A DNA stretch of 64,000 bases, from positions 64,001 through 128,000 of the forward strand of contig CAXXIN010000001.1 in assembly GCA_963665275.2 (NCBI GenBank). The letters run 5' to 3'. Made by a program: the position numbers and the translations under genes. A model generated the notes under the pieces. The model ran no database searches. It was not told the DNA's origin and worked only from the letters and a program-made list of their open reading frames with translations. Positions 662 through 17,333 of the stretch are shown in pieces (position 1 is the stretch's first letter; each line of letters opens with the position of its first letter). Source of the stretch: Negativicutes bacterium. Lineage in GTDB: Bacteria; Bacillota; Negativicutes; UBA1444.

Positions 662-1636
662 TCAAACGTTTTCTGCTTTTTTCCTCTTCCGACTTGCCGC
701 GACATTGTCTCTGTTTTTACATCCCGTGCATTTTTTCCAACGAGTGCGTCCTTTATTATCAGTCAAGTCAAAGAACTTTCCGCAGGAAGGACACCATTTG
801 TAAATTCTTTCTTTGGTTACCCCTTGGAAAATTTGTCCCCACATAAATCCTAACAAATTTGAAGGATAATAACACTGAACTAGTTGTTTTGTTTGAAGGT
901 GGTACATCAATCTGGGGGTGGCAGGGAATTTGTCCACCATACTGTTTACTTTTTCCTGGATGGCTATTGTTATTCGGATTATTGGAGTATTGCCTTCGCG
1001 CATAATCCTGTGATAGGGCCTTTTGTCATACAAGGCGCTTCCTACGCGATAACGTACAGATTCAAAATCTATCCATATGCCGGGAATTCCTCTAACCATG
1101 CAAACAGTGGCGTCATTGATCGCTTTTTCCACGCTACGCAAGTCATTTTCCAATTTCGGTTCTAATTTTTGAAGGTCTTTTTCAGTTGCGAATTCTAGAC
1201 CTAATTCTTTAATAGTGCTTTTGGCATTATTGTACTGCTCCAGCCATGCCGTCAGTTGGCAAACATATCTCATGTCAGCAATGCTATTCCACCAAAACTC
1301 TTTGCTTTCGCCCATAAACTTAGGGTGAGTTGGGTCCTCGTCAGTGAAAAACGTATTTTTTGTCAATAGGCCCCATCTATTGGCAAAGGCAATAAGTTGA
1401 GACTCGCTTCTGATCTCTGTAAAATTTTCGAACAACATCGGATTTTTTTTATTCTCAGGATCAAAACAATCGTAATAAGAAAGTTCTTCTACGGGATCGA
1501 CTGGCACAATAAACGGGGGACGTATTGGCTCGACTGGCTTATCGGTTGGCTTAACAAGGGATACTTTATCTGTAATTTGGTAACCGGACGTTTTGCGTGC
1601 CCACATAAATACTGTTGTATCTTTTCCAACGAGCAT
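662..1636 (-). CDS. Hypothetical protein with C-terminal CGNR-type zinc finger (putative DNA-binding regulator)
   Basis: C-terminal CPSC...CTGCKNRDNVAASRKRKK pattern. Start chosen at ATG 1636, preceded by GGAGATGAGG. Confidence 0.65.
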   Translation of the reverse strand: MLVGKDTTVFMWARKTSGYQITDKVSLVKPTDKPVEPIRPPFIVPVDPVEELSYYDCFDPENKKNPMLFENFTEIRSESQLIAFANRWGLLTKNTFFTDEDPTHPKFMGESKEFWWNSIADMRYVCQLTAWLEQYNNAKSTIKELGLEFATEKDLQKLEPKLENDLRSVEKAINDATVCMVRGIPGIWIDFESVRYRVGSALYDKRPYHRIMREGNTPIIRITIAIQEKVNSMVDKFPATPRLMYHLQTKQLVQCYYPSNLLGFMWGQIFQGVTKERIYKWCPSCGKFFDLTDNKGRTRWKKCTGCKNRDNVAASRKRKKAENV

Positions 1637-1789
1637 GTCCTCATCTCCATTTGTAAGCAAAATGTAATCGGATAAAATATAGATTACTGTTACTATCTTG
1701 ATTATTATTATAGGCAGGGGTGGCCTGGTGTGCAAGAAAAATCTATAATGCGTGAGGCATCAGACAAATAAAAGAGAGGAGATGACAAG

Positions 1790-1981
1790 ATGAATAATGT
1801 AGAACTCAGGTCCATACTGGATCGTGCCCGGAAGGAGAATGGCATTTTTGCATACGAAGTGGCTTATTCTCTGGGCGTAAATGATGTGACTTTTTCCCGC
1901 TGGCTCCGCAAAGAACTTACGTCGGAACGGCGAACGCAAATTTTGGCCGCGATTGATAAATTGCAAAAAAAAGTGGGGTGA
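1790..1981 (+). CDS. Cro/Xre-type HTH regulator
   Basis: 63 aa; AYEVAYSLGVNDVTFSRWLR HTH; GAGGAG RBS; divergent from 662..1636. Confidence 0.8.
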   Translation: MNNVELRSILDRARKENGIFAYEVAYSLGVNDVTFSRWLRKELTSERRTQILAAIDKLQKKVG

Positions 1982-2169
1982 CGATGATGGATAAAAAAAC
2001 ATTTACCGTTAAAGAATTCATGGCAGCGGTCGGAATATCAAAGAGTTTCGCGTACAGGTTGATCAATATGAACCAATTCCCAGTAATAAGACTAGGACAT
2101 CGCAAAGTGCTGATCTCTGCCGCAGTCGTGGATAAAATCATCGCAGGCTATGATTTCACAAAGGATTAG
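1978..2169 (+). CDS. Excisionase/AlpA-like HTH protein
   Basis: TFTVKEFMAAVGISKSFAYRLI...FPVIRLG matches the HTH_17/Xis pattern. Confidence 0.8.
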   Translation: MTMMDKKTFTVKEFMAAVGISKSFAYRLINMNQFPVIRLGHRKVLISAAVVDKIIAGYDFTKD

Positions 2170-2181
2170 CAGGATAACACC

Positions 2182-2370
2182 ATGAAAAATCTTTGCACAC
2201 TTCAACAATTTCGAAGGGCGCTGCAAGAAAACATCGATACGAATATTGATAAGCATCACCGTCGAGTTGATATGGTGCTGGTTTTCATTGAAGACGAGGA
2301 ACTTTTGATAGCCGCATGGATCCGCAGAATTGATCGATATGCAAAGTCTCTCAATTTCAGAGGAAAATAA
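2182..2370 (+). CDS. Hypothetical protein
   Basis: 62-aa ORF with AGGA RBS, in operon order. Confidence 0.55.
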   Translation: MKNLCTLQQFRRALQENIDTNIDKHHRRVDMVLVFIEDEELLIAAWIRRIDRYAKSLNFRGK

Positions 2371-2421
2371 AGCGCGCCAATGTCCCTGCAAAGGTTGACG
2401 GCGCGCGAGGAAGGGATAATT

Positions 2422-2625: not shown

Positions 2626-3393
2626 GTGAGCGCGGCGATTCCGGGCGGCTATATTTTGCTTGCAAGAAAAATCATCGACAGCGAGATATGGAAAAAACCA
2701 CCACTGTATATGAAGATATGGATATACCTTCTAACCCAAGCTCAACACGATCAATACAGAGGATTGCAAAAAGGTCAACTTTATACAAGCATCCCCAAAA
2801 TCCAAAAAGCCTGTGCATGGAAAATTGGCTTCAGCACCGTCACGCCAACCAAAGATCAGGTTTTTCAAGTTATCGATTGGATGCGAAAAACATCTACTAC
2901 ACTAGCAACGATGGAAGCACCAATGATAGCAACGATGAAGGCAACACATGGAATGCTTGTAACCATAGATAAATACTGTGTTTATCAGAACTCGAAACTG
3001 TATGAAAGCAACGATGAACCCGCGATGAAAGCAACGATGAACTACGACAATACAAACAAGAACCACAAAAATAACCAATACTCTCTTGTCGAAGCTAACC
3101 ACATTCGACTTGCCGAACTACTGCGGGATTCAATAACCGCTTGGAAACCAAATGCAAAGGTTGATAAAGATCTTGGCAAATGGGCCAACGTCATCAGGCT
3201 ATGCATGAAGGACGGCAGAACGGAAGCTGAGATTGAAGCCGTCATAATATGGGCAACCTGTGATTCGTTTTGGCAGGTTAATATTCTTTCTGCCGATGCT
3301 CTTCGTCGAAACTTCGATAAGCTTCAGGCTAAGATGATGCAATCAAAACCAACACAATCACCAAGTCGAGATTATTCAACTATACGGATGTGA
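2626..3393 (+). CDS. Phage replication initiator with lambda-O-like C-terminal domain
   Basis: N-terminal GYILLARKIIDSEIW...IWIYLL winged-helix type region; C-terminal WANVIRL..DGRT...W...DSFWQVNILSADALRRNFDKL resembles the lambda O C-terminus; internal iterons. Confidence 0.8.
   Translation: MSAAIPGGYILLARKIIDSEIWKKPPLYMKIWIYLLTQAQHDQYRGLQKGQLYTSIPKIQKACAWKIGFSTVTPTKDQVFQVIDWMRKTSTTLATMEAPMIATMKATHGMLVTIDKYCVYQNSKLYESNDEPAMKATMNYDNTNKNHKNNQYSLVEANHIRLAELLRDSITAWKPNAKVDKDLGKWANVIRLCMKDGRTEAEIEAVIIWATCDSFWQVNILSADALRRNFDKLQAKMMQSKPTQSPSRDYSTIRM
2904..3075. repeat. Iteron array / putative replication origin inside the initiator gene
   Basis: AGCAACGATG exact at 2904, 2928, 3007 and 3030, degenerate copies between (about 12-bp period), then an A-rich tract. 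Confidence 0.75.
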
Positions 3394-3400: not shown

Positions 3401-5176
3401 ATGAACCCTTACGAATTCGCCAGAGCTCACCTTGGAGAATTCAAACAACACGGTAATGAGATTGTTCCAAAGTATTGCCCGTTTTGCCAAGGTGGACCCA
3501 ATAAAGATAAAAATTCCTTCGCTTTGAATGTTGCTAAAATGACGTACAACTGTAAGCGCGGATCATGCGCCGAACAAGGTCACTTCACACAACTTTGTAA
3601 GCGATTCGGAGTTGAAGCTGACAGAGAGCCTGGATATGAAAACTATCGGCCGGTACCAAAGGTTTATAAAAAGCCGGAAACCGTTATCGAAACGCCCCGA
3701 CAGAAAGTCGAATCCTATTTAAAGCTTCGAGGATTTAGCCCGTCGACATGGGAACGGCGCCGAGTTGGAGAAGCGGCCGGCAATATTTGTTTTCCATACT
3801 ATGAAGATTCCAAAGTCGTTTTGGTGAAGTTCCGGAAGCCTGAAAAATATACCGGCCATGGGCAAAAGGCTTGGCGTGAAACTGGTGGCAAAGACATTCT
3901 ATGGGGAATGGACTTGTGTGATCCTCAAAAACCGCTGGTGATAACTGAAGGAGAATTTGACACGCTGGCTTTAGACGAAGCCGGCATTTTTAATGCCGTA
4001 TCAGTTCCATCGGGCGCAGCAAGCATGGAATGGATTGAGAACTGTTGGGACTGGCTGGAACAGTTCAGCAAAATCATCATCTGGGGGGATGCCGACGACC
4101 CAGGGCGGGAGATGGTCCGGAAGGTTGTTTTAAAACTTGGAGAATGGCGCTGCTTCCTCGTTGATTCCGGGCGCCATAAAGATGCAAACGAAGCATTGGC
4201 AAGAGAAGGCAAGGAAAAGACGGCTGCCTATGTGGCACAGGCAAAGCCGATTCCGATTCAAGGGCTCATTGATCTTGCCGATGTGACGCCGGTCGATATC
4301 TCCAACATTGCACGAGTACGATCTGGTATTCCGGGTCTTGATCAAGAGATCGGCGGATTTCTTATGGGGGAACTTTCTGTATGGACTGGCAAGAGTGGAC
4401 AGGGAAAATCAACGCTATTGGGGCAATTGCTTTTGGAGTCCATTCACCAGGATTATGGCGTTTGTGCATATAGTGGAGAACTCCGGGCGGATCGGTTTCA
4501 ATATTGGACAAACCTTCAGGCTGCCGGCCCAAATTACATCGAGCAGTATTTCGATACGGTAAAAAAACGGCCGGTTGGCTATGTTCCCAAGCCAATCAGC
4601 AGCCAGATTCGCGAATGGTATCGGGGAAAGTTCTGGCTCTACGATAACAATATCTTGTCATCAAGCCCTGAAGAAAGCGGGATCATCAAACTATTTACCT
4701 ATGCAGCGCGGCGTTATGATTGCAAGGTTTTCCTTGTGGACAATCTGATGACTTCCCGTTTTGAAGGTGGAAAATCAGACAGCGATTATTACCGGGCGCA
4801 GTCAACTTTCGTGGGGGACCTGGTTCATTTCGCAAAAGCCTACAATGCGCATGTTCATTTGGTGGCTCATCCCCGAAAGACTCAGGGAAAAGTCGATAAG
4901 GAAAGCGTTTCGGGGAGCGGCGATATTTCAAACAGAGCAGACAATGTCTTTTCCGTCGAGAGGGCAGAAATAGGTGCCCCGATCAATACGACGGTTTCAA
5001 TTCTCAAGAACCGATCTGAGGGGATTCAAAATGTCGAAATCGGATTACTGTTTGACGTCGATTGCAAGAGACTCTGGCAGCCTTCAGATGCAGCTGGAAT
5101 GACAAAACTGTATGGATGGGAGACGCAACGAAAAATAACGTGCGCAGATGATTTCGGGCAGGAAGTTAAGTTTTAA
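3401..5176 (+). CDS. Bifunctional primase-helicase (T7 gp4/Twinkle type)
   Basis: Zn finger CPFC...CKRGSC; TOPRIM ITEGEFD and GDADDPG; Walker A GKSGQGKS; LVDNL and VAHPRK SF4 helicase motifs. Confidence 0.93.
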   Translation: MNPYEFARAHLGEFKQHGNEIVPKYCPFCQGGPNKDKNSFALNVAKMTYNCKRGSCAEQGHFTQLCKRFGVEADREPGYENYRPVPKVYKKPETVIETPRQKVESYLKLRGFSPSTWERRRVGEAAGNICFPYYEDSKVVLVKFRKPEKYTGHGQKAWRETGGKDILWGMDLCDPQKPLVITEGEFDTLALDEAGIFNAVSVPSGAASMEWIENCWDWLEQFSKIIIWGDADDPGREMVRKVVLKLGEWRCFLVDSGRHKDANEALAREGKEKTAAYVAQAKPIPIQGLIDLADVTPVDISNIARVRSGIPGLDQEIGGFLMGELSVWTGKSGQGKSTLLGQLLLESIHQDYGVCAYSGELRADRFQYWTNLQAAGPNYIEQYFDTVKKRPVGYVPKPISSQIREWYRGKFWLYDNNILSSSPEESGIIKLFTYAARRYDCKVFLVDNLMTSRFEGGKSDSDYYRAQSTFVGDLVHFAKAYNAHVHLVAHPRKTQGKVDKESVSGSGDISNRADNVFSVERAEIGAPINTTVSILKNRSEGIQNVEIGLLFDVDCKRLWQPSDAAGMTKLYGWETQRKITCADDFGQEVKF

Positions 5177-5209: not shown

Positions 5210-5680
5210 ATGGCTAATGCAGATCAAATTATTTTGCGACTTGCTAACGGAACATTAGTGCTCTATCCCCAAGAGGTCTTTGAACTGGTAAGAGAATCAC
5301 CGTCGCTTTTGGCTGCCGCACTGCGGCGAGGAATACGGGAGAGGGATGAAATACTGAAGAAAATCCGAAGCTCGAATGGTGGGGCAATGGAGGCCACGGT
5401 CATAAATGATTGGGGCACATTGATTTGGGTTGATTTTATCGACGGTAAATGGTTGGTTAGCCGGCGAAATGACGATGGAACGCACGCAATATTGAAACGC
5501 TTTGATAAACCCCTTCTTGCGTTCCAGAGCGCCTGTAACATGCGAGATGGTGTCCAGATCGTTTGCCCCAATGGCGACTTTAAGCCGTCGGCGGTGAATG
5601 ATATTTGCCGGACAAAGAGCGCTGCAGATGAAATTGATCGAATGATGGGTGGCCCTGGCTGGTGGCCCTGGCTGGATTGA
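5210..5680 (+). CDS. Hypothetical phage protein
   Basis: AAGGAGG RBS; C-terminal half similar to 6261..6590. Confidence 0.7.
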   Translation: MANADQIILRLANGTLVLYPQEVFELVRESPSLLAAALRRGIRERDEILKKIRSSNGGAMEATVINDWGTLIWVDFIDGKWLVSRRNDDGTHAILKRFDKPLLAFQSACNMRDGVQIVCPNGDFKPSAVNDICRTKSAADEIDRMMGGPGWWPWLD

Positions 5681-5736
5681 AAATGCCAACGAGTTTTCAC
5701 GAAGTGAAGATACGAAAATTAATGGAGGTTGTAGTT

Positions 5737-6264
5737 ATGAGTGAGCAAATGACAGAAGAACAATCTGTAGCATATCTAAAAAAGAGTTTTCGCATTAGGA
5801 CAGACAACAAGGGGTTGGTGCTACTGCGTTCAATCAAGGAAATGCTTCCGAAGGCAGATGAACAGACCCAAAAGAAAATAGGCGGGATTATTATTGGGTT
5901 TGCATCGTTTCATAATCTATCGGATTCGCAGCTGTTAAAGTTCTTTGGGGTAACGCTGGAGGCAGCTAAAGGAGCAGTTGGGGAAGAGTTCTTGCGGGAA
6001 CATGGATTTTATAGGGCATTGGTAGCAAGCCCGTATTTGTCACCGACGTGTAAACTGTTCTTTAATGCGTGGTTTGCCGAGGCAAATGATAAATACCCTA
6101 TGGGGTGTTGCCTACGTCGTGTTGGGATGGATACGTTCCGTCTTGTATCGATATTGCCAAGCGGTGCGGAGATTGAATATCCGGAGGATATGACGACTGC
6201 CCAAGTACTCGAGGCGACGAACTGCCCACGAGATGAACTGCAGGCCATGCCGGTGCTGCAATGA
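5737..6264 (+). CDS. Hypothetical protein
   Basis: GGAGG RBS before ATG 5737; ATGA overlap with the next gene. Confidence 0.7.
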   Translation: MSEQMTEEQSVAYLKKSFRIRTDNKGLVLLRSIKEMLPKADEQTQKKIGGIIIGFASFHNLSDSQLLKFFGVTLEAAKGAVGEEFLREHGFYRALVASPYLSPTCKLFFNAWFAEANDKYPMGCCLRRVGMDTFRLVSILPSGAEIEYPEDMTTAQVLEATNCPRDELQAMPVLQ

Positions 6265-6590
6265 ATAGCCAGGAAAGAACGGCGGCGACAACGTTGAAGG
6301 GTGAAGATATCCGCATTGGATGGATAGATGGCCTATTTTTGGTAGTGACCAAGACAGGAAAAGAAATTAATGGACTGGATGAAGTATTCGTGCTTCGACA
6401 GTTTGATGATCCGGAAAAAGCGTTAGCGTACGGGGCAGCTGTGATGGATGGATTGAAGCTGATGAACGGAGGTGTTTTTACTCCTACCGATGACGGCGAA
6501 GTGCTGGCTTCGCCCGAAGCTATGCTAGCCATGACCGGGATGTTTTTCGAACGAAATAATAAAAGGAGGGAAAACGATGTCAGCAAGTGA
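6261..6590 (+). CDS. Hypothetical protein immediately upstream of the tape-measure gene
   Basis: Overlaps both neighbours; partial paralog of 5210..5680. Confidence 0.7.
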   Translation: MNSQERTAATTLKGEDIRIGWIDGLFLVVTKTGKEINGLDEVFVLRQFDDPEKALAYGAAVMDGLKLMNGGVFTPTDDGEVLASPEAMLAMTGMFFERNNKRRENDVSK

Positions 6591-9500
6591 TGTTCAAATA
6601 CAAATAATCGGCAAGGATTTAGCCTCTGCCGCGTTCAAGTCCGTCGATGCGTCGGCAAAACGGACTGAAGCTCAGATGGCTTCTCTTGGTTCGTCTGCCG
6701 GAAGAATGGGCGGGATGTTTAGAAGCGCCGCTTCTGTCACCGCCGGGATTGCTGGGTACGAAGGAATATCCTCAATAATGCAAAAAAGCGTTGGCGCGGC
6801 GTTCGAATTTGCAACAGGGCTCGAAGCCTCTGCCAACGGCATGGCCGGTATTCTCATGAGCATGGGCCAGGTTGACGGCAGGACGCTTGAATGGGGCGAG
6901 TCGCTATCTGTAGCGCAGGGAATCATTACCCGCATGAATGACGAGGCGCTGCGTACGGCGGCAACCTCTCAAGAACTCGTTCGCGGCGTCCAGGCGCTTC
7001 TGGCTCCCGGCCTTGCATCGGGAATGAATATCACCCAAATTGAAACACTGACCGTAACCGGTGTGAATGCGGTTAAGTTATTACAGTTGCAATCCTATCA
7101 AGTTGTCCAGGAATTGCGTGACCTTGTTGCCGGCGGAATTCAGCCGGCTTCTTCTACTTTAGCGACAGCGTTGGGGTTGAAAGATTCCGACATACAGGCA
7201 GCAAAAGCATCATCGCAAGGCCTGTTCAACTTCCTGATGGAAAGACTGAAAGGATTTGAAGTCGCGTCTGGCGAGTACGCCAAAACCTTCAAGGGCCTTA
7301 ACGAACAAATCAAAGAAGGACTGACACGCGGAGCGGCAACAGGGATGGGAGCTGGCCTTGAATTCGCCAAAGAACAGATGAAAGGCCTTGCCGAAAAAAT
7401 AGTCACGATTGACGAAACGACCAAAACGGTGCAGATAAACCCTGTACTGGTCAGCACGATCGGGGCCATGACTCAAAACACAATCGCATTTGTCGGAGAA
7501 ATGAAAAAGATTGGCGAAATTGTTTCGCCGGTTGTTGTCCCGGCGGTTGAGATGCTAGGGTCTGCAATCGGATATGCTGCACGCAATGCAAGTGACCTGA
7601 CGTTCGCTGTTGGTGGGTGGATGATAGCCAAACAGGCGCAGGTTATATATATGGACGTTGCGGCGGCTACTGCAGGGGCTGCAACGGCGCAGACCCTGCT
7701 GGGAAGAGCGGTTATTGAAACCAATGCGCAACAGACACGACAAAGAGCAATGGCGCTTGAAGCGGCGGCAGTGCAAAAGGCAGCCGTGACAGAGCAGGTT
7801 ATCGCAATAAAATCTCTTCTCGCGGCAGAAGCGCAAAGAACCTCAGGGTTAATGAAAATGACTGCTGGATATGTTGATCAAGCCTCGGTGGTAGATAAGG
7901 CAAGACTTGCACTAATTGGGGCAACACAGGCAGCCAAAAACGGAGAATACAGCCTGGCACAGAGCATTATTTCCACAAACGAAGTTTTGGCAGCACAAGG
8001 GGCCATCGCAACCGCCGTGGCGGAAAAACAAGTCGCTGGAGCCGTGGCCGCTGCGGGAGCGCAAAAATCACTGGCGGCAACTACGGCAACGGCAAGCGCA
8101 TTTAACGCAGGAGCTTCTGTAGGGATGACGGCTGCAAGCTTTGTTGGTAAAGCTGCTTGGAAGGCTGTTAACGGATGGTTCGGCGCCGCAGTGCTGGTAA
8201 GCTATTACGCCTACGATGAAATATGGAAAAACCGCGAAGAAATTAAGCGGATTATGGCCGAAAACTACAACAATAATTTGAACACCCCTCAATCTCCCGG
8301 AGAGGATTATTTGTTTGGGCCCAAGGACAAAACCCCGGTCGCTAATTATGGAGAAAATCGAAAGCCGGACAAGAAAGTTTCTCCCGGCAGCGGCGATCCG
8401 CTCCGCGATCAGCAAGGCCCATTGCAGAAAAACGATAAGCAACTTTCCGAAATCACCGGTAAATATAACAAGCAAAAAGAAGAAATCATGAAGATTGAAG
8501 CTGATCTTCAGACATCAATACTCCAATTACAAGGGTTCACACTGCAAGCAACGCTCAATGGAATTGAAAAAGAGAAAAAGGCGTGGATTGAAAAAGGCGT
8601 CAATAAAGTCGCGGCAGAGCAATGGGCCGCCGCGGCCATCACTAAAGCCAACAAAGACGCCGCCGACAAAATTAAAACAGCCTACGAGCAGGTGAAATCA
8701 TCCCGCGAAAGCGTTGCCAGCACGTTCCAGGGATCGTTTGGATCAGCCATTGACGAAGTGATGCAGAACATCAAGAACAATCGCAGCGAGAACGCCTACG
8801 AAGCGGTTGAAAAGATGCGTAAGGAATTTGAGATCAGGCAGCAAGCCTCAAGGGCCGTGGCTTCGGCGGCAGGGTTTTCTGATGCAGAAAAGTTCGATCC
8901 GGTATCTCCATGGCAGTCGGTCAATAAGTCCATTGAAGCCGCAGCAAAAGCGCAAATAGAGTATTTGAAGATCATCGCGCAGAATACGGCAAGGCCACCA
9001 CAATCCCCGGCTGGGAGTATTCAGAACCCCAAAGATCCTGGTAAGGCAAACAGTTTCCCGCCAATACAGGGAGGCGGGTCAAACCCGAATTATGATGGGG
9101 CATTTGGCGGTGGACAGCAACGTAACGGCGAGGCGATTACTCCAGGAACACTAACCTTTGAACAATATAATAAGGCGACCGGCATGGATAAGTTAATGAA
9201 CATTACGTGGCCGGCAGGGTGGACAGATGAGCGTAAAGAAAAGTGGGGGCGAAATTTAGAGGGGTTCCCAATTCCTGGTCCGTACAACGACTCATCCAAG
9301 AAACCGTTTTGGAAAGCAGATACCCAAGGTGGCATGCTGCAGTCTAACTCCGATCAAGTTGAGCGCGCAAGAATAATCATGGGAAATATGTCTGGCGATA
9401 AAGAGTCAACCAATAGAGTAAGGGCGCTGATGCAGGGGATGAAGGAATCAAGTGGCGATAAATTCGCGCCGCAAACATCCGCTATCGCACCAGTGCAACA

Positions 9501-9663
9501 AGTATCAAATAGCCTTAAATTTGATATCCAGGTCAATGCCAATGGCATGGATCAGGAGTCTGCAAGGCAACTAGGCAACGAAGCGGCAAAGCAAATGCTT
9601 CCTCGCATCGAACAGGCAATTAATCAGTCGCGGACTAGCTTTGCAGGACCAGGACTGAAATGA
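6577..9663 (+). CDS. Phage tail tape-measure-like protein (1028 aa)
   Basis: N-terminus DVQIQIIGKDLAS; long Ala/Gly-rich helical body with hydrophobic segment WFGAAVLVSYYAY; C-terminal FDIQVNANG..ARQLGNEAAKQM, typical of tape measures; AGGAGG RBS. Confidence 0.82.
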   Translation: MSASDVQIQIIGKDLASAAFKSVDASAKRTEAQMASLGSSAGRMGGMFRSAASVTAGIAGYEGISSIMQKSVGAAFEFATGLEASANGMAGILMSMGQVDGRTLEWGESLSVAQGIITRMNDEALRTAATSQELVRGVQALLAPGLASGMNITQIETLTVTGVNAVKLLQLQSYQVVQELRDLVAGGIQPASSTLATALGLKDSDIQAAKASSQGLFNFLMERLKGFEVASGEYAKTFKGLNEQIKEGLTRGAATGMGAGLEFAKEQMKGLAEKIVTIDETTKTVQINPVLVSTIGAMTQNTIAFVGEMKKIGEIVSPVVVPAVEMLGSAIGYAARNASDLTFAVGGWMIAKQAQVIYMDVAAATAGAATAQTLLGRAVIETNAQQTRQRAMALEAAAVQKAAVTEQVIAIKSLLAAEAQRTSGLMKMTAGYVDQASVVDKARLALIGATQAAKNGEYSLAQSIISTNEVLAAQGAIATAVAEKQVAGAVAAAGAQKSLAATTATASAFNAGASVGMTAASFVGKAAWKAVNGWFGAAVLVSYYAYDEIWKNREEIKRIMAENYNNNLNTPQSPGEDYLFGPKDKTPVANYGENRKPDKKVSPGSGDPLRDQQGPLQKNDKQLSEITGKYNKQKEEIMKIEADLQTSILQLQGFTLQATLNGIEKEKKAWIEKGVNKVAAEQWAAAAITKANKDAADKIKTAYEQVKSSRESVASTFQGSFGSAIDEVMQNIKNNRSENAYEAVEKMRKEFEIRQQASRAVASAAGFSDAEKFDPVSPWQSVNKSIEAAAKAQIEYLKIIAQNTARPPQSPAGSIQNPKDPGKANSFPPIQGGGSNPNYDGAFGGGQQRNGEAITPGTLTFEQYNKATGMDKLMNITWPAGWTDERKEKWGRNLEGFPIPGPYNDSSKKPFWKADTQGGMLQSNSDQVERARIIMGNMSGDKESTNRVRALMQGMKESSGDKFAPQTSAIAPVQQVSNSLKFDIQVNANGMDQESARQLGNEAAKQMLPRIEQAINQSRTSFAGPGLK

Positions 9664-9675: not shown

Positions 9676-9936
9676 ATGCAGGAACATGACAAAATAATTC
9701 AGTTGACTCACATGGAATCAACCTTGCGTGAAGTTGCAAAACGCGTAATATTGACGGCTGATGTGCTAGAACGGTGCAGGACCATAAGCGATCCTGCACC
9801 GGTACTTCTGGCCTGGACTGTTGTGATTGAACGTCAGTCCAAGGAGCTGGAATGCATTGCAAGGGTAATTCGCCAAGAAGCCGACGCGGTGGAGGTGGCG
9901 CATGGACGAAAAGACGGCAGCAGTTCTGTTGCTTGA
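9676..9936 (+). CDS. Hypothetical protein
   Basis: 86-aa helical ORF in the operon. Confidence 0.5.
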   Translation: MQEHDKIIQLTHMESTLREVAKRVILTADVLERCRTISDPAPVLLAWTVVIERQSKELECIARVIRQEADAVEVAHGRKDGSSSVA

Positions 9937-10438
9937 CTATCCTAAGCGATGGGATGCCCTGCAGGAGCGCCGAGCTCAGATTATTGACGCCTATGGTAAC
10001 GGTAACGCCTATCATGGTGGCGGAGGAGACAGTGGCGGTCATAGTGATAATACTTTCAAAAAAGCCTCGCTGCTGGTTAATATGGGCACAGAAGAAGCCA
10101 ACCTTAAGGTGGTGCGCGAATGGCTTTCTATCGGATTGAACCCTCGGGATTCGAGTGGTATTGATAAATTTATGGAGAGGTTATCCATCAGTTCAGCTCG
10201 ATCGGCACAATATCGATCAGAGCGAGAGCGTAAGCCAGAGAGTGAAAGGCATGGTGAATGGGTTGACTCGCTTTGCTGGACGTGCCTGAGACGAACGTGG
10301 TCGTGCCTATGTCAGTATCCGGAAGAAACGCCGCCAGGACTTGAGACAACTGAACCCAATCCGCAATGTGCTGACCGGATTGTGGTTCGGTGTGGTTGGT
10401 ATTGGCACGATAAGGAAGCGGCACAGGTGCGGAAGTAG
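9902..10438 (+). CDS. Protein with RinA/ArpU-like N-terminus and Cys-rich C-terminus
   Basis: LLDYPKRW..LQERRAQII...GGGG..SDNTFKKA resembles the RinA N-terminal region; C-terminus has CWTC..C..C..C; GGAGGTGG RBS. Confidence 0.6.
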   Translation: MDEKTAAVLLLDYPKRWDALQERRAQIIDAYGNGNAYHGGGGDSGGHSDNTFKKASLLVNMGTEEANLKVVREWLSIGLNPRDSSGIDKFMERLSISSARSAQYRSERERKPESERHGEWVDSLCWTCLRRTWSCLCQYPEETPPGLETTEPNPQCADRIVVRCGWYWHDKEAAQVRK

Positions 10439-10698: not shown

Positions 10699-10699
10699 A

Positions 10700-10732: not shown

Positions 10733-10949
10733 AAGTTTCGTGCCGGTAATTCTCGGCATCCATACCCAATCGATCTTCAAATCCGCAAACGCTTGCGTTT
10801 TTGAAACTTCCAAGCGCTTGGAAGTTTGGCATACATAAGGCATGGTGACCAACGTTTCTGCCGAGACCGACAATCCTTCATAACACAGTAGCGGGTTGAT
10901 ATGGTAGGCAATGCTTCAAACAGTCATGAGAAAGAACGGGAGGAAGCAA

Positions 10950-11369
10950 ATGGATCCTGGCGATGTTGCCACGGAATTGAAAGAGGACTATCTACTCATT
11001 TCAAGTTGGCTGATTTACTACAGTGAACGGAAGCGCAACATAGACATAATGCGGATTTCAACGCAAGACAAGAGGTGGATGGAGGTGTTCGAGCTATTGC
11101 ACCATATGCTTGGACCGAAGAAACGTCTATTACTCGAACTCAGGAGACTAGAGGCAGAGCAACCAGCCGCTCGCAGAACACGAGGAAGGCCCGGCTGGAT
11201 GGTATGGGTGCAACGCCATTGGGTCGAAGCCTACGCGAAGCGATACGGTGATTCTGATGGTGAATGCTGGATATCGGACGGGATGGTCAAGAACATGTGG
11301 AGCGAGATTGTGGCTCGATGCGCAATATTGGCAGGAAAGAGAGGGCTGCTGGCGGGGAGAGCCTCCTAG
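10950..11369 (+). CDS. RinA-like late/packaging transcriptional activator
   Basis: LGPKKRLLLELR...W...ISDGMVKNMWSEIVARCAILAGKRGLL resembles the RinA C-terminal HTH; lies directly upstream of the cos-like site; GGGAGG RBS. Confidence 0.6.
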   Translation: MDPGDVATELKEDYLLISSWLIYYSERKRNIDIMRISTQDKRWMEVFELLHHMLGPKKRLLLELRRLEAEQPAARRTRGRPGWMVWVQRHWVEAYAKRYGDSDGECWISDGMVKNMWSEIVARCAILAGKRGLLAGRAS

Positions 11370-11376
11370 AGGGCGC

Positions 11377-11449: not shown

Positions 11450-11763
11450 GTGCGCTTCGGATTTCGCTTTTTTGGTGTGCGCTTCTGGTGGGCAAAGCCG
11501 CCGAAAATTCAGTATTTAAAGCACTTGAAGGGGGGTAGCGAAAAACAAAACCAACGGCAAAAGTCGGAAGTAAAGCGAAACTGCGAAAAAAGGGGGGGGG
11601 ATGTGTTTGGGGGTATCTTTTGCGAACTCGATAAAATACGGCGCGGTATCGGGGAAAAAAGCAATGTCAAAAATTAATCAGAAAGGGGCTAAAGATAATG
11701 AACATGCAAAGCGGCGAGGCAATGACAAAAAAAGAAAACGCTAATAATACGGAGGGTAAACCA

Positions 11764-12498
11764 ATGACCGAAAACAGTATGGAAAAGGCCCGGAAAAAGC
11801 TAAATAATGCCTATGCGATGGAATTAGAACAGGCGGCAATCGTCGCAAGTCTAAAGGGTAAAATTAAGGCCGCAGAGGGCGCGACCGTCGAAATCGGCGA
11901 TGACATTGATCTTGTGGCCATTCGGCAGAGAATATCGGAAACGCAGAAAAAACACCAAAACTTGACCGGCGAATTGGCAGCGGCTGAAATGGTGCTGGTG
12001 TCGATTCAAAAACAACGAATCAATGCTTTGATGGCGGTTTATGCGGCGGAACACGAAATCAGACAGGAAGAACGGTCACTATTGATAAAAGAGCGAGCGG
12101 GATTGCAGTCTGAGATAACCAGCCTTCGCGCAAAACTAGAAGTCATTGAAGGAAAGGGTAGACTTCTTGACCGTACATTAGACAGCATGAACCGAGCCGA
12201 GGAAACAGTTGCCGGGAAATGCGCAGCGGCAAGGCTGGCGGGGTATGAAGAATCATTACTGAGGTGTCGTGATCGACAAAAATTTCACGACATAATGGAA
12301 AGCGGCCAGGGCGGCACATACGTAACGATTGACGAGCGCGGCGAATTTATCGAACCGCAACAAACAAGCCGCGACGTTGACCAATGGGGCTATCAAAAGC
12401 CGGTGGCTACGGTTCAGTATAGCGAGCCTAGGCCTATAGAAAATAGGGTTGAAACCCCAAAACGAGAAGTATTTACGGTCGTCCCCATGCAGGCATAA
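11764..12498 (+). CDS. Coiled-coil hypothetical protein
   Basis: GGAGG RBS before ATG 11764; heptad-rich E/K/R/L/A sequence; followed by a terminator. Confidence 0.7.
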   Translation: MTENSMEKARKKLNNAYAMELEQAAIVASLKGKIKAAEGATVEIGDDIDLVAIRQRISETQKKHQNLTGELAAAEMVLVSIQKQRINALMAVYAAEHEIRQEERSLLIKERAGLQSEITSLRAKLEVIEGKGRLLDRTLDSMNRAEETVAGKCAAARLAGYEESLLRCRDRQKFHDIMESGQGGTYVTIDERGEFIEPQQTSRDVDQWGYQKPVATVQYSEPRPIENRVETPKREVFTVVPMQA

Positions 12499-12514: not shown

Positions 12515-12551
12515 AACCCCGCGCCGCAAGCTTTTCTTGCGGCGCGGGGTT
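12515..12551. terminator. Terminator hairpin between convergent genes
   Basis: aaccccgcgccgcaag / cttgcggcgcggggtt perfect stem. Confidence 0.8.
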
Positions 12552-12644: not shown

Positions 12645-13043
12645 TTATACTCTCAGTCGTTTTTTCAAGGCGGTTTGCAATATGTTGGAAAAGTTGACCC
12701 CCTCACGTTCGGCCATGGTGTTCAACCATTGAGGGATCGTCAGAGTTTTCTTCACAGCCCGGTTATCGTGCTTCTGTTTATAGGCCAGCATATCCATATC
12801 GACCAGGGCGATGAAGCTGCTGCCCTCCGAGCGTAGTCCGGAAGGATCAGAGGCAGCAGGAAATTCCTTCCCGTCTGCTTCCAGTTCGGTCAAATAAATA
12901 CCTATGGCGTCCCGTGTCATTTCAAAAGCCTCTTCCAGGGTATCACCTTCCGTAATGCAGCCGGGAAGATCAGGAACGGTTACAGAGTAGCCACCGACTG
13001 CTTCCGCTTCGAATATGGCCGGATATACAAACTTTGTTTTCAT
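12645..13043 (-). CDS. hicB: HicB family antitoxin
   Basis: YPAIFE...YSVTVPDLPGCITEGDTLEEA...VKKTLTIPQWLN...VNFS. Confidence 0.93.
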   Translation of the reverse strand: MKTKFVYPAIFEAEAVGGYSVTVPDLPGCITEGDTLEEAFEMTRDAIGIYLTELEADGKEFPAASDPSGLRSEGSSFIALVDMDMLAYKQKHDNRAVKKTLTIPQWLNTMAEREGVNFSNILQTALKKRLRV

Positions 13044-13045: not shown

Positions 13046-13252
13046 CTATTCCTCCTTCGGCAGCTGGACCGGCTTCAATCCGGCTTGCTTCATAATCTGG
13101 TTAAAGGTTCCCGGCTTCAGGTCTTTGTTATGGAGAGGAACAACCAGCATACCTGGCTTATCCGTGTGCTTCATGATATGGTGCGATCCATCGATTCGCG
13201 CCACCCGCCATCCATCTTTTTCAAGGATCCTGATCAGGTCTTTGGGCTTCAC
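13046..13252 (-). CDS. hicA: HicA family mRNA interferase toxin
   Basis: LEKDGW...GSHHIMKH...VVPLHNKDLKPGT...IMKQAGL. Confidence 0.93.
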   Translation of the reverse strand: MKPKDLIRILEKDGWRVARIDGSHHIMKHTDKPGMLVVPLHNKDLKPGTFNQIMKQAGLKPVQLPKEE

Positions 13253-13662: not shown

Positions 13663-13875
13663 TTAAACTTTCTCTTCTGGAATATACTCCATGAGGTCAC
13701 TGGGTTGACAGTTAAAATACTGGCACAAACGATGAACAACTTCCAGGGAAACATATTCACCTTTACCCATTTTAGCTATCGTTGATGGCGACAGGCTGAG
13801 CTCGATTCTTAATTTCTCTTTCGTTATCCCTTTATCAATGAGCATTTTCCATAAAGGATTGAATGAAAACGGCAT
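13663..13875 (-). CDS. Xre/Cro-C1 (HTH_26-type) repressor
   Basis: FNPLWKMLIDKGITKEKLR..LSLSPSTIAKMGKGEYVSLEV..RLC.YFNCQPSDLMEY. Confidence 0.9.
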   Translation of the reverse strand: MPFSFNPLWKMLIDKGITKEKLRIELSLSPSTIAKMGKGEYVSLEVVHRLCQYFNCQPSDLMEYIPEEKV

Positions 13876-13900
13876 AGGATACACCTCCCTTCTTCTACAT

Positions 13901-13978
13901 ATAATAGTATAAAATATTCAATATGTCAAAGAAAAACTATGCAAACACATTGACGAAACCTTTGACAAGTTGTAGAAT
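13901..13978. promoter_or_regulatory. Divergent sigma-A promoters of the second switch
   Basis: Rightward TTGACG-N17-TAGAAT (13950-13978); leftward TTGACA-N17-TATTAT (13929-13901). Confidence 0.65.
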
Positions 13979-14300
13979 AAATCTAGAAATGCGGAGATAG
14001 TTGGCGAAGATGCTTTGACCCATGTTAAATAATACCCCCCCCACAACCGCAAACATTTTGGTAAGCGAAGGATACGAATCGACACCACGCCTGCATTCTT
14101 ACAAGGGCCGCCGTCAGATCAGAACAATTTGTCAAAGTTGTAGTTGGTTTTCCAGGAACTCTCTCGGCGGTGTTATTGTAAGATTAAGGATAATTACGTA
14201 TTGAAAAGGGGTGGCTTATTGGTGACAACACAGAACAGAGCAGGGCCATAGACCGGCTTCATACGATCAAAAAGGAAATGAATGAAAGGAGAGGCCCATC

Positions 14301-14495
14301 ATGAAAAAACCAATCGTCATACCCCATTACGAAGACCAGGACATTCTCTCAGCCGTTGAGGCGGCGCAGTACATGAAGGTTTCAAAAGACACCGTTTACA
14401 CCCTCGTTGCCGAAAATAAAATTCCGCACCGCTATGTTGGTCGGCAGGTCAGGTTCCCGTTCTGGTTGCTCAAGGCCTGGATGGAAGGGGATTAG
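14301..14495 (+). CDS. Excisionase-family HTH protein
   Basis: LSAVEAAQYMKVSKDTVYTLV..NKIPHRYVGRQVRF. Confidence 0.85.
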   Translation: MKKPIVIPHYEDQDILSAVEAAQYMKVSKDTVYTLVAENKIPHRYVGRQVRFPFWLLKAWMEGD

Positions 14496-14637
14496 GTGTT
14501 CACCGATGGCGTACAAAGAAACTGTTGAATCTTCAGTGGCGCAGAGACAATAGGCCTCATTGTGAAAATCGGCGCCACCACTTTCGGTCAGAGATCCGAG
14601 CGATCAACGAGATTTGACTTGGGAAGGAGCAATAACC

Positions 14638-14808
14638 ATGGCAGTTTATAGAGGAGAAATCATCTGGGTCGAAGAGTTTGGCACGAAACCGCGAAGCGAG
14701 GTTTTCGCCAAGCTCATGAAGATACTGGAAGACGGCTATGCAAAGCAGTTGTTGGAGAAAGACGCGAAAAGGGCAGCAGAAGAAGCGGCGCGAGAATCGA
14801 TTACCTAA
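14638..14808 (+). CDS. Hypothetical protein
   Basis: AAGGAG RBS; followed by a hairpin at 14820-14847. Confidence 0.6.
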   Translation: MAVYRGEIIWVEEFGTKPRSEVFAKLMKILEDGYAKQLLEKDAKRAAEEAARESIT

Positions 14809-14937
14809 AACTAGAAAAGCCCGGCCCCTGTTTTAACAGGGGCCGGGTCAATCGATCAAAGCAGAATTGAATGAAACTGATATGTATATTTTGATTGTAA
14901 TAGAGATATCGGGTGAAAAGAAAGGGGATATATTTTT

Positions 14938-15198
14938 ATGATCGACTGGCAGGAAATTGAAGCACTGGGCACGGAAGCGGAGCAGCTCGCCACGATGGCG
15001 CAAACGGTAGAGGATGCCATAGCGTATGGGCCTTTTACCGAAAAGACTTATCACGGGGCATTGTCCCTGCTCACAGCGCTTATACACCAACATGCGCAAA
15101 AAATTAATGTGGTATTGCATGCAGAATTGAATGAACTGAAATCGAAAAAGAAAGAAAGGCCGTCAATGGTACGGGATACCGCGGCAGCCTCGCAATAA
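14938..15198 (+). CDS. Hypothetical protein
   Basis: 86 aa; AAGGGG RBS. Confidence 0.6.
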   Translation: MIDWQEIEALGTEAEQLATMAQTVEDAIAYGPFTEKTYHGALSLLTALIHQHAQKINVVLHAELNELKSKKKERPSMVRDTAAASQ

Positions 15199-15257
15199 TA
15201 AATATAGTATGGGCGGCTGCTGTCATGCGCCCCCACCATTTTGAAAGGGAGATTATT

Positions 15258-15890
15258 GTGAAACTGATTTGTACGACGGTAGAACCTATCCAATTCAAGG
15301 TTGAGTTTGACTTTGCTACGCATTACCTTCAGGGATTTATTAGGAATCTGCAGCAATTCATTGGTTCCGGCAATATAGACCGCGACGCATTGAAGCGATC
15401 GGTGTTCTATGGCGTGAAGTATGTCGCAGGCAATATAAAAGCCAACAACTCGCAACGAATGCTGGGCCTTGTCACTGGCGTGAAAGTGGCAATTGCGGAG
15501 CTTACACCTGCCGAATTGATTACCATATTCCCCATAACAAAGACATACGATGGGGATCGGACGAAAAGCAAGGATTACTTCTATTCGATAGACCGGCTGA
15601 AGAAACACGGCCTGCAGACCATCATCGGCGATGCGGTGGATGATTTGCTATGGGATATTAGGAATTTGGATCTTGAGCTTTTCACGGTTCGTTGCATGAC
15701 ATTGGTCGACGAGTTGCGCCGGATGGAAGGGAAGCCGGGAATAATTGAGGAATTCTACGGCATTCAACCAAAGTATCTGTGCAAGGATGAGCGCGGCAAA
15801 GAGTTTATGTTTGATCCTGCGACGGGCAAAACCGCAAAGGTGAAAGCGAAGATACGTTTGCACATTGTTGCAAAAAAAGGAAATCATTAA
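15258..15890 (+). CDS. Conserved hypothetical phage protein
   Basis: TPAELITIFPITKTYDG...KDYFY motif recalled from Bacillota prophage proteins; AAGGGAG RBS before GTG. Confidence 0.65.
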   Translation: MKLICTTVEPIQFKVEFDFATHYLQGFIRNLQQFIGSGNIDRDALKRSVFYGVKYVAGNIKANNSQRMLGLVTGVKVAIAELTPAELITIFPITKTYDGDRTKSKDYFYSIDRLKKHGLQTIIGDAVDDLLWDIRNLDLELFTVRCMTLVDELRRMEGKPGIIEEFYGIQPKYLCKDERGKEFMFDPATGKTAKVKAKIRLHIVAKKGNH

Positions 15891-16055
15891 ACGAATACTC
15901 TCCATCAGTGGTGAGTATTCGTACTACACGCCGAGTAATCGCTTTGCAACTTCCTGCAAAATGCTTCGCAGGATGAATTCCAAGTTGAGAAAAACACAGT
16001 GCTGGGGGAAACGAAGAGGAGAAATGGCATAGGATCAAAACAGGAGGTGAATTTG

Positions 16056-17261
16056 ATGGCAAAGCAAAAACCGAAACCCGAAGGACCAGAAACACGAAGA
16101 GGGCATGGTGAAGGAAGTTGGTTGTATCTTGATGATCTGGACAAATGGCAGTTCAGGGTATCAGCCAAAACACCGGATGGTATCACAAAACGGTTTGCAG
16201 TGACAGCATCTACTAAAGGCGAATGCAGGGAGCTTGCTAAGACCCGGACGGAGCAGATCGAAAAAGGGATCGGGTTGAACATTGATACGAAGAATATCAC
16301 AGTTACAGAGTACTTGGAACGTTGGATTGTCGACTACTCAGACCCAGATACTTCTGCATCAACCAAGAGAATATACCGGTCGGTGATTAAGAATCAACTA
16401 GCAGGGGCGATTGGCGCAATTCCCTTGAAAAAGCTGCAGCGAGCTGCATGCCAAAGACACTTCAACAATTTGGCCAAGAGTGGATTGGCTTCAGCGACAG
16501 TTTCATTGGCGCATACGGTACTGCGTGCAGCGTTGAAGCAGGCTGTAAGGGACAGGATCATTGCGGAAAACCCAGCAAGTGAACTGAAGCTGGCACAGAT
16601 TAAAAACGCGCCCAGGATGGCCTACGCATCGGAAGAGGTTTCCAAGATTCTGAAGCTGGCAGAGAATCATGAATTGCGTATCGGCTTTCATCTTCTCTTT
16701 GGGCTTGCTCTACGCGAAGGCGAGATGTTAGGCCTGAAATGGAAAAGGGTTGAACTTCCGGAAGCACAGCGCGATCAGAATGGCCAGATGGAAGGAAAAG
16801 TTCATATCGTAGAGCAGTTGAACAGAAATAAGGGCGAAACCTACGCTTCCCTAAAAACGGAGGAATCTGAACGGACCTTGCCAATATCGCCAGCGCTGGT
16901 CATTGAGCTACGAGCACAGATGCTTCGTCAAAAAGCAACGCTGTTAAAAGCCGGCATAGCCTGGAACGAAGATTTCCCTGTATTATCTGATGCGATTGGC
17001 GGACCGGTCAGGCATACGATTTTTTTGGCAGCATACAAGGAAGTTATGCAAGCTGCTGGTCTGAAAACTACCGGGACGCATGACGCCAGACACACACGAT
17101 TAACTATGTTGGCCAATAGCGGGATGGACCCCAAAACCCTGTCGAGATTCGCAGGGCATGCCGATGTCGCTTTCACACTGAATGTATATGTAACACCATC
17201 GGACGAGAAGGCTGCTGCGGCGGTCAATCAATTGGATCAAGTCATTTATAAGGCAAAATAA
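16056..17261 (+). CDS. int: Tyrosine recombinase / phage integrase
   Basis: N-terminal RRGHGEGS arm-binding region; catalytic R (LREGE), HxxR (HDARHT), H (GHAD) and Y (NVYV); AGGAGGTG RBS. Confidence 0.95.
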   Translation: MAKQKPKPEGPETRRGHGEGSWLYLDDLDKWQFRVSAKTPDGITKRFAVTASTKGECRELAKTRTEQIEKGIGLNIDTKNITVTEYLERWIVDYSDPDTSASTKRIYRSVIKNQLAGAIGAIPLKKLQRAACQRHFNNLAKSGLASATVSLAHTVLRAALKQAVRDRIIAENPASELKLAQIKNAPRMAYASEEVSKILKLAENHELRIGFHLLFGLALREGEMLGLKWKRVELPEAQRDQNGQMEGKVHIVEQLNRNKGETYASLKTEESERTLPISPALVIELRAQMLRQKATLLKAGIAWNEDFPVLSDAIGGPVRHTIFLAAYKEVMQAAGLKTTGTHDARHTRLTMLANSGMDPKTLSRFAGHADVAFTLNVYVTPSDEKAAAAVNQLDQVIYKAK

Positions 17262-17286
17262 AATCGTTTTGGTAATCGTTTTGGTA
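17262..17286 (+). repeat. Tandem 12-bp repeat; putative integrase arm-type sites at the attachment end
   Basis: AATCGTTTTGGT x2 immediately after the integrase stop codon. Confidence 0.6.
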
Positions 17287-17333
17287 GTTTGAAAACACAG
17301 GCACGCGCAAAGCCTATAATATAAAGCCTCAAT

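Follow-up and report, generated by a model that had tools for sequence, protein, structure and literature searches.

What is an integrated element doing with a gene for a tape measure protein (TMP) when no gene for a head, a terminase or the rest of a tail can be recognised in it? This question is raised by a 64,000-nucleotide stretch of DNA from a Negativicutes bacterium (assembly GCA_963665275.2, contig CAXXIN010000001.1, positions 64,001 to 128,000), referred to below as the window, at the left end of which lies a compact element with replication genes, a 1028-aa TMP and an integrase. The source genome, G000, is a 3.97-Mb assembly of 20 contigs, 92.6% complete, in which the window corresponds to G000:C1:64001-128000. 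In the labels used here G### is a genome, C## a contig and L### a stretch of its DNA, and the genus set comprises 12 genomes, G000 and 11 congeners. We propose that the element is probably an integrated, helper-dependent satellite of the PICI type (PICI, phage-inducible chromosomal island), with its own TMP for the assembly of chimeric tails. The interpretation as a satellite with a helper is supported as far as the sequence reaches.

The initial annotation, made from the DNA letters, had placed the element at window positions 662-17290, a span that proved too small. An exact 27-bp direct repeat gives the attachment sites, attL at window -2277..-2251 (C1:61723-61749, L003:17723-17749) and attR at window 17333-17359, the latter beginning 72 bp past the end of the integrase gene. 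No second direct repeat longer than 15 bp was found when the DNA left of the window was compared with the zone after the integrase. The element spans window -2277 (C1:61723) to 17359, or 19.6 kb, and, like a PICI, combines an integrase (PF00589) with a specific attachment site bounded by direct repeats. The initial annotation had also pointed to the unseen left side as the place where attL and structural genes should be sought. The attL site lies 2.3 kb left of the window, and the 20 kb examined on that side contain no structural phage genes and no head or tail module; host-type genes are found instead, for an MFS transporter, a CoA-transferase, an HTH-cupin regulator, a chemoreceptor (MCP), and PAS-GGDEF-HD and PAS-SpoIIE-kinase-like proteins. 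On the right flank, the element is inserted upstream of a phosphate-binding-protein-type gene (PF12849). The exact repeats and the host genes on both flanks indicate a 19.6-kb insertion that has no head or tail module to its left.

In 7 of the 11 congeners, conservation of the phosphate-binding-protein gene and of the att core immediately upstream of it sets in at base 1 or 2 of the repeat. Upstream of this gene, G007 has an att-like core identical at 25/27 positions and G002 one identical at 23/27; in both, a panel of integrase and element genes found no match in the neighbouring DNA examined. It is noted that the ends of three contigs, G011:C73, G011:C285 and G010:C99, fall exactly at the att core upstream of this gene. 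Related insertions may exist there; because the contigs end at the core, they are uninformative on site occupancy.

Within these limits, the gene order agrees with the one first described, running from regulators through initiator and origin, primase-helicase, three small genes, TMP, a 178-aa open reading frame (ORF), a G-rich region and a coiled-coil gene to HicAB and the integrase. Pfam was scanned with 19 window ORFs and the in-window part of an ORF entering from the left, PHROGs with 20 ORFs, NCBIfam with 10, and PADLOC with 8 window ORFs and 2 ORFs from the left end of the element. In the scanned ORFs, Pfam, PHROGs and NCBIfam revealed no capsid, portal, protease, terminase, tube, sheath, baseplate, fibre, holin or endolysin gene, which bears out the absence of capsid, portal, terminase, tube, baseplate and lysis genes claimed initially. 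The large ORFs are indeed intact, and the genes are tightly coupled. The element has its own replication module, as PICIs do. A DnaD-like initiator gene (2626..3393, + strand; phrog_2514, 9e-40) contains iterons of 18-26 bp at 2903-3042 (repeat families D2, D4 and D7), and this region is likely the origin of replication as judged from its repeats. The primase-helicase gene follows (3401..5176, +), combining Toprim with a DnaB-like ATPase (phrog_239, 6e-89; Toprim and AAA_25/DnaB_C Pfam matches). The element presumably excises and replicates on its own. Downstream, two translationally coupled genes of 156 and 200 aa with a stop/start overlap (5210..6264, +; no match in Pfam, PHROGs, NCBIfam or PADLOC) lead to a 109-aa gene (6261..6590, +), which overlaps the start of the TMP gene (6577..9663, +).

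The assignment of the 1028-aa ORF as a tape measure stands on firm homology. A large protein search returned 183 relatives, one of them named 'tail tape measure protein'; others, of 1281-1400 aa and with an SLT domain, are encoded on Megamonas contigs of 40-47 kb. By tblastn, the protein matches the annotated tape measures of two Nitratiruptor phages, and a further relative is the TMP of a full prophage in a congener, G007:C9. The window protein itself has no Pfam match, no match among PDB sequences, and a single PHROG match without annotated function, while its homologue in another congener, G003:C53, matches TMP PHROGs. Its homology is thus to the TMPs of complete tailed phages. Its position is not that of a tail-module gene after tube and chaperone genes, since replication genes and three unassigned ORFs lie upstream and no tube or chaperone family was found among them.

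The TMP is a mosaic. In both the large protein search and tblastn, relatives align only to its first 35-69%. Residues 1-404 are 57% identical to the TMP of the G007:C9 prophage and residues 1-511 are 47% identical to that of G003:C53 (46-56% over the best BLAST segments); the part from residue 1 to ~520 is of the type found in siphophages with a GpA (lambda-type) terminase, a lambda-type portal and a Phage_tube_2 tube. A coiled-coil stretch at ~616-788 resembles the TMPs, 672-706 aa long, that two further prophages of the genus encode. A separate search with the C-terminal 469 residues returned one relative, so that the C-terminal half is nearly an orphan. Compared with the TMPs of Phage_tube_2 lambda-like siphophages such as the G007:C9 phage, the protein has a similar length and the same helical, Ala/Gly-rich composition, but its gene is located between replication genes and a cos-like site and its C-terminal half is unrelated.

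Where this TMP type occurs was surveyed in two collections. Of 80 loci kept from IMG/VR, 56 carry structural genes like those of the G007 prophage (54 with terminase, portal or tube), and genes of the satellite panel occur in none of the 80. Among the GTDB representatives (one genome per species) there are 19 loci: eight have a terminase, portal, capsid or tube like that of G007:C9, one (G003:C53) is satellite-like, and in the remaining 10, mostly Betaproteobacteria with proteins of >2000 aa, nothing in the panel matched. The 109-aa protein encoded just before the TMP is 51% identical to a 95-aa ORF in the same position in G003:C53, and its position makes it a candidate tail-assembly chaperone. 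It has no homologue in the full phages of the TMP family, and a word-based homologue search returned only the protein itself. Its single-sequence structure model is poor (pLDDT 50).

Which phage could provide the missing parts? The GpA terminase is present in one of the 12 genus genomes, namely in the G007:C9 prophage, whose TMP is also the closest in the genus. This prophage has GpA ATPase and nuclease domains, a lambda-type portal, ClpP, capsid protein E, Phage_tube_2, DUF2460 and a gp84-type hub. Its TMP measures 1011-1021 aa, depending on the start codon, versus 1028 aa in the element. Apart from the N-terminal part of the TMP, the two share only a HicB fragment and one 86-aa ORF. A further likeness lies in the G-rich intergenic region of ~330 bp at 11370-11697. 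When window 10440-11700 was searched against all retrieved DNA, a 21-bp BLAST match of 95% identity to G007:C9 was found at window 11406-11426. An exact 17-mer of this cos-like region is located at G007:C9:41371-41387, 106-122 bp upstream of a 173-aa putative small-terminase ORF, into which the start of the GpA terminase gene extends. Lambda-like phages keep cos just upstream of their terminase genes. In the 12 genus genomes the exact 17-mer occurs in two places only, the element and G007:C9, where ~0.004 exact matches would be expected by chance by our own arithmetic; matches of the motif with two mismatches are no commoner there than for a reversed control pattern. The sequence at 11404-11426 is regarded as a candidate helper-type cos motif. 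The shared 17-mer and the related TMP are independent likenesses, and both indicate that the helper type belongs to one phage lineage. The initial proposal of a helper with a lambda-type terminase is strengthened by the finding that the sole GpA prophage of the genus has both the closest TMP and the 17-mer upstream of its putative small-terminase gene.

The element does not stand alone. A tblastn search with its proteins found a second element of 12.0 kb in the same genome (G000:C7:320041-332051; L013:4041-16051), inserted in tRNA-Val(TAC). Its bounds are two near-identical direct copies of ~90 bp, exact over a stretch of 46 bp, and this repeat is the 3' end of the tRNA gene. It starts with a 223-aa gene, a small helix-turn-helix (HTH) gene, DnaD-like and DnaC-like genes, and genes of 83 and 105 aa, followed by a 617-aa TMP of another family (PF20155 TMP_3, 8e-63; phrog_339, 1e-79). 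The rest consists of a gene for a Dit-like tail protein (PF21821, 4e-32), a 123-aa gene, a homologue of the 178-aa ORF of the window (used below as a marker gene), an XRE HTH gene, a HIRAN-domain gene and the integrase. In G003:C53, a 15.7-kb contig of a congener, a 408-aa divergent gene is accompanied by a small HTH gene, an initiator, a DnaC-like gene, genes of 143, 221 and 95 aa, and a 1093-aa TMP. Beside this sister element, at the contig end, there is an IS21-type pair of a 529-aa transposase and an IstB/DnaC-like ATPase (L012:198-2527).

A profile of the marker family, applied to 401 genomes of the class (G000 included), revealed loci in four other genomes from three families, all in small regions bearing an integrase or replication genes. 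At G196:C30, a gene of the 357-aa type is divergent from Cro-like/small HTH genes, and a primase-polymerase/helicase, the marker, a gene like that of the small terminase subunit (TerS-like; phrog_5110, 1e-10) and a 917-aa TMP (phrog_12798, 1e-84) are also present. The G051:C1 element contains DnaD-like and DnaB-like genes, the marker, a 328-aa 'tail protein' (phrog_400, 1.5e-101; L046:10543-11529), a HIRAN gene and an integrase, and no tape measure. At the G132 and G014 loci, which have an integrase, the marker and a primase and both reach contig ends, no tape measure was seen. The compact gene order, for which relatives in other Negativicutes had been suggested as a check, recurs in G000:C7, G003:C53 and G196:C30. 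The same layout with differing tail genes implies one backbone with variable tail cargo. One part of this layout is the 357-aa gene itself (662..1735, - strand), which carries a C-terminal Cys4 ribbon, is divergent from the rightward operon and is kept in related elements. Its homologue in G196:C30 is in the same divergent position (8e-21) and links it to the 408-aa ORF of G003:C53. No match was found for it in Pfam, PHROGs, NCBIfam or PADLOC, and it is a candidate master regulator.

Taken as a helper-dependent satellite, the element would work as follows. A phage of the G007:C9-type lineage would supply the terminase, heads, tube, tip and lysis functions, and its terminase would recognise the cos-like site, so that satellite DNA would be packaged into helper capsids. 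The satellite TMP, perhaps together with the 109-aa protein, would replace the helper TMP in the tail-initiation complex. The resulting satellite particles would have chimeric tails of about the helper length, given 1028 versus 1011-1021 aa, as in the satellites of Vibrio discussed below. The private C-terminal half of the TMP may free satellite tails from factors acting on the helper TMP, or let them resist such factors. We infer that the element's TMP would hijack or jam tail assembly, as was initially suggested.

Several observations weigh against this assignment. The cos site is a thin point, being one motif of 17-22 bp. Five genomes with full phages of this TMP type gave only background-level matches to the motif within two mismatches, the regions upstream of the terminase genes of these phages not being open to checking. 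The co-resident GpA-terminase prophage that had been anticipated was not found: in the genome of the element, 92.6% complete, nothing matched the terminase families GpA_ATPase, TerL_ATPase, Terminase_6N and Terminase_3, the portal family Phage_portal or the capsid family Phage_capsid, with positive controls. Contigs of three public runs hold the integrated form only and no excised or circular form or joint, although contigs cannot reveal rare forms. PICIs and the related pathogenicity islands of Staphylococcus aureus (SaPIs) usually measure ~15 kb, whereas the element is 19.6 kb and carries a virion structural gene. Satellite-like loci make up 2 of the 99 collected for the TMP family, so that this TMP type is rare on satellites. 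The 109-aa protein shows no likeness to known tail chaperones, its profile matching nothing among PDB sequences, and the overlaps upstream of three TMP genes contain no X_XXY_YYZ (G/GT-type) slippery site. Finally, the C-terminal half of the TMP, the part expected to dock in the tail tip, is unlike that of the candidate helper, and on this account the protein might poison tails rather than build them.

This last point leads to an alternative that we consider unlikely but worth weighing, in which the locus is an anti-phage island, mobile now or formerly, whose TMP builds no particles of its own and serves as a decoy or as a poison subunit. With an N-terminal half like that of the helper, the TMP would enter the tail-initiation pathway of an invading phage, and its foreign C-terminal half would prevent completion of the tail, which would protect the population as Tab, Tai and Rta do by other means. 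A TMP-directed block of tail assembly is a defence principle documented in two publications (PMC10884400, PMC12987554). The chimeric TMP, with a C-terminal half almost without relatives, would suit such a role, as would the defence-type cargo, HicAB and a SocA/Panacea pair, and the lack of any recognisable chaperone, Dit or hub gene beside the TMP in the window element. The sister elements, however, carry complete ordinary TMPs, one with a Dit-like and one with a TerS-like gene, which looks like building; the cos-like motif in common with the candidate helper argues for packaging, and a TMP so near in length to the helper type suits substitution.

A decayed prophage, from which the head and lysis genes and the greater part of the tail genes have gone and in which the TMP gene persists by chance, would account for the finding that relatives of the TMP are mostly in complete prophages (the 56 of 80 IMG/VR loci and 8 of 19 GTDB loci with structural genes) and for the missing helper. 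It would also fit a frameshift in the regulator gene downstream of the TMP in the window assembly, but this frameshift is absent from the contigs of the three public runs. The initial annotation had named a full prophage from which this copy arose by deletion as evidence that would overturn a satellite. The related prophages share only the N-terminal part of the TMP, and their order of cos, head, tail and TMP cannot give replication genes, TMP and cos by simple deletion. In addition, none of the large ORFs is disrupted, coupling between the genes is tight and the att repeats are perfect. The compact layout is found again, twice in this genome, in combination with three unrelated families of TMP and with differing replication modules. 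A simple prophage remnant was rejected on these grounds (gene order, N-terminal-only sharing, intact ORFs and recurrent layout), and we regard a decayed prophage as quite improbable. We give very little credence to an integrative element that moves without phage particles, for example by conjugative mobilisation, its TMP-like protein spanning the envelope or belonging to the cell wall. No packaging gene is recognised and the TMP has hydrophobic segments and no Pfam match, as such an element would allow; against it, the Pfam, PHROGs and NCBIfam scans found no relaxase, coupling protein or other transfer family, the TMP is strongly homologous to virion proteins of complete phages, and the sister elements carry Dit-like, TerS-like and tail-protein genes. 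A small autonomous phage was also rejected, since apart from the 357-aa divergent gene there is no unmatched ORF big enough for a terminase or portal.

The helper-dependent satellite that we favour can be compared with several known systems. PICIs and SaPIs, including the cos-type SaPIbov5, have an integrase and att site, divergent regulation, a replication operon, end cargo and a helper-type packaging site, and no capsid or lysis genes. The element similarly has an integrase with att sites, a divergent regulatory region, an operon of initiator, origin and primase-helicase, cargo at its ends, and no capsid or lysis genes, and, if the candidate cos motif is a helper-type packaging site, it would resemble the cos-type SaPIs in having such a site in place of a terminase. 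It departs from PICIs, which lack structural and lysis genes, in that the TMP is a virion protein, though head, terminase, tube and lysis genes are absent. Unlike in PICIs and SaPIs, the integrase and the regulatory region lie at a distance from each other, and a separate HTH/Xis-like switch goes with the integrase. No homologue of the PICI proteins Stl, Str, AlpA, Ppi, Cpm and TerS was recognised in the element.

The closest parallels are the PICI-like elements (PLEs) of Vibrio cholerae, which encode a TMP, a chaperone and a hub and put TMP and hub into tails otherwise made by the phage ICP1 (PMC12987554, Nature 2026). Deletion of the tmp gene abolished 96-99.9% of PLE transfer, and in PLE11 the satellite's own TMP allows it to block the phage's TMP with Rta (PMC12987554). 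The chimeric tails of PLEs were the first satellite-made ones to be demonstrated. The paper mentions other satellites in passing, its discussion and the legend of Extended Data Fig. 10 reporting putative tmp genes in PLE-like elements and in some capsid-forming PICIs (cf-PICIs) (PMC12987554). The EPIPs of Mycolicibacterium also bear a TMP, and altered tail lengths suggest that the satellite TMP is used (preprint, PMC12822802). Like PLE11, PLE1 and PLE4, the element is an integrated satellite without tube, sheath or fibre genes, with its own TMP and a small gene beside it. As in PLEs, its TMP is near the predicted helper's in length, and it is predicted to depend on the helper for other virion parts. 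PLE11 adds BhuB, and the C7 sister element likewise adds a tail-tip (Dit-like) gene. Of the PLE set of TMP, chaperone and tail-tip protein, the window element has the TMP and, beside it, the 109-aa protein without family match, the Dit-like protein being found in the C7 sister only; no Rta-like inhibitor, chaperone or hub is recognised. No sequence relation to PLEs was seen, no search aimed at one having been made. The host phylum differs, and the candidate helper is a temperate lambda-like siphophage, whereas ICP1 is a lytic myophage. The PLE11 TMP is ~20% identical to that of ICP1, in contrast to ~57% between the N-terminal half of the element's TMP and the helper-type protein. The cf-PICIs with tmp and the EPIPs encode in addition a capsid, scaffold, portal, adaptor or small terminase, none of which is recognisable in the scanned ORFs of the element, and EPIPs have a serine integrase where the element has a tyrosine integrase.

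The initial suggestion of a new family holds in part. New are the lineage, the minimal gene set, the chimeric TMP, the modular cassettes and the presence of two satellites in one genome, whereas satellites with a tape measure of their own are as such already published (PLEs, some cf-PICIs and EPIPs). A literature search on PICIs in Negativicutes found nothing relevant, searches on tape measures in satellites or PICIs led to the papers cited above, and the supplementary tables and gene maps of PMC12987554 may list Bacillota satellites with tmp. The locus represents an independent and much simpler case in a distant phylum, with the TMP as the satellite's sole recognised virion gene, and a candidate helper lineage, a candidate packaging motif and a sister satellite with a different tail cassette in the same cell are in hand. 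If the assignment is correct, tail piracy would be widespread among satellites and modular as a strategy, such elements would escape any satellite finder that discards candidates with structural genes, and the halves of a TMP would be recombinable, separating tube compatibility from tip or entry functions.

A broader proposal can be advanced tentatively, with doubts prevailing at present. The elements may form a Negativicutes satellite family in which one backbone (the divergent 357-aa-type gene, small HTH genes, replication module, sigma-like regulator, XRE/Xis-like switch and integrase) is combined with interchangeable, helper-tuned tail cassettes: TMP alone, TMP with a Dit-like protein, a TerS-like protein with TMP, or another tail protein. 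The window TMP would then be a purpose-built chimera, and the two satellites of one genome would await different helpers. The N-terminal half of this TMP would keep compatibility with the helper tube and termination machinery, and its C-terminal half would give the satellite particles their own tail tip or entry behaviour, or immunity to a satellite-borne TMP-directed blocker.

The regulator gene downstream of the TMP deserves closer description. The 178-aa ORF of the window (9902..10438, +) is preceded by an 86-aa ORF and belongs to the marker family, of which ~145-aa homologues number 30 among 1.8 billion representatives. It matches these homologues for 83 residues and then changes frame, the homologous continuation (…WRG…RFAG) being in the +1 frame. 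Relative to the window assembly, contigs of the three public runs, which come from two studies, are one base shorter both in a TT run at window ~10150 and in a T5 run at ~10515. The missing base at ~10150 restores the usual form of the marker, and the 178-aa ORF, fused by a 1-nt indel as assembled, is therefore an assembly difference and not biology. Five genomes have, in another frame and overlapping the marker at its 3' end, a small ORF rich in Cys (CWxCxRRTWxCLC…; window 10250-10438; L013:8976-9266; G014:C5, G051:C1, G132:C81 and G196:C30), and the homologue P0132 contains the marker and the Cys-rich part in one frame. A programmed frameshift may underlie this arrangement, or the two genes may simply overlap.

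The marker family has no match in Pfam, PHROGs or NCBIfam, and neither sequence nor Foldseek searches of the PDB gave anything significant. A model of the family (pLDDT 76) was used for structure searches. In one, sigma factors account for 7 of the 9 best rows with Z of 5.1-6.2, values too low to set the likeness apart from a common arrangement of helices; against BFVD, rows named sigma-70 region 4, transcriptional activator and DUF1492 were obtained with probability 0.97-1.0 and E of 6e-3 to 1. On the model, the marker is plausibly a small sigma-region-4-like regulator that works like RinA. The name 'RinA-like' of the initial annotation can be kept in this functional sense, while membership in the RinA/ArpU class of small sigma-like late activators is not established.

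A palindrome of 26-30 bp (TTCAAATCCGCAAnCGCTTGCG..TTTGAA) is found once per element in three elements of the genus that are otherwise unalignable, at window 10776-10805 (10776..10805), L013:9607-9636 and L012:12963-12987. Its 18-nt core is exact in two elements only in the 3.97-Mb genome, the other matches, on C13 and C17, having two mismatches. It is a candidate operator or other protein-binding site, terminator or packaging signal.

The remaining genes are mainly regulators and cargo. Two cargo pairs of toxin-antitoxin type are present. One, at the left end, is a SocA/Panacea-domain gene with a 139-aa partner gene (L003:18253-19330), after which a 268-aa accessory ORF starts at L003:19612 and extends into the window with its 3' part (2..421, +; no family match). 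The other, near the right end on the minus strand, is HicB antitoxin (12645-13043; PF15919, 9e-17) and HicA toxin (13046-13252; PF07927, 7e-24), as named initially (phrog_497, phrog_353), with a small membrane-protein gene beside it on the same strand. PADLOC found no match among the ten accessory or unassigned ORFs, and the NCBIfam scan of ten ORFs gave chance-level rows only. A single Rfam row, BSnc120, at 28.8 bits versus a cut-off of 114, is sub-threshold and was taken as chance. Four small ORFs open the rightward operon (1790-1981, 1978-2169, 2182-2370 and 2380-2619, +); sister elements keep the first two of these, whose position alone makes them Cro-like and Xis/AlpA-like, the initial names 'Cro' and 'Xis' having no support from Pfam, PHROGs or PDB. 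Between the palindrome and the coiled-coil gene lies a 152-aa ORF (10911..11369, +; no family match), preceded by a short ORF, and the 266-aa coiled-coil gene (11698..12498, +; no family match) is followed by a strong bidirectional terminator at 12515-12551.

A second regulatory switch occupies 13663-14495. It consists of an XRE-family HTH gene (13663-13884, -; PDB 3tyr, 7e-16), divergent promoter-like sites with an inverted repeat (13953-14144), and a divergent 64-aa Xis-like gene (14301-14495, +; no PDB match). It is followed by a 221-aa gene of a phage family (15225..15890, +; phrog_6329, 6e-39) with a homologue in the G051 element, and by the tyrosine integrase gene (15999..17261, +; PF00589, 1e-14; PF14659; phrog_1, 7e-59), beyond which attR (17333..17359) is the exact copy of attL. 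A 21-nt direct repeat (…GGAnTGAATGAAA) is present in four copies over 13848-15136, close to the XRE, Xis-like and integrase genes, and may represent arm-type or regulator sites.

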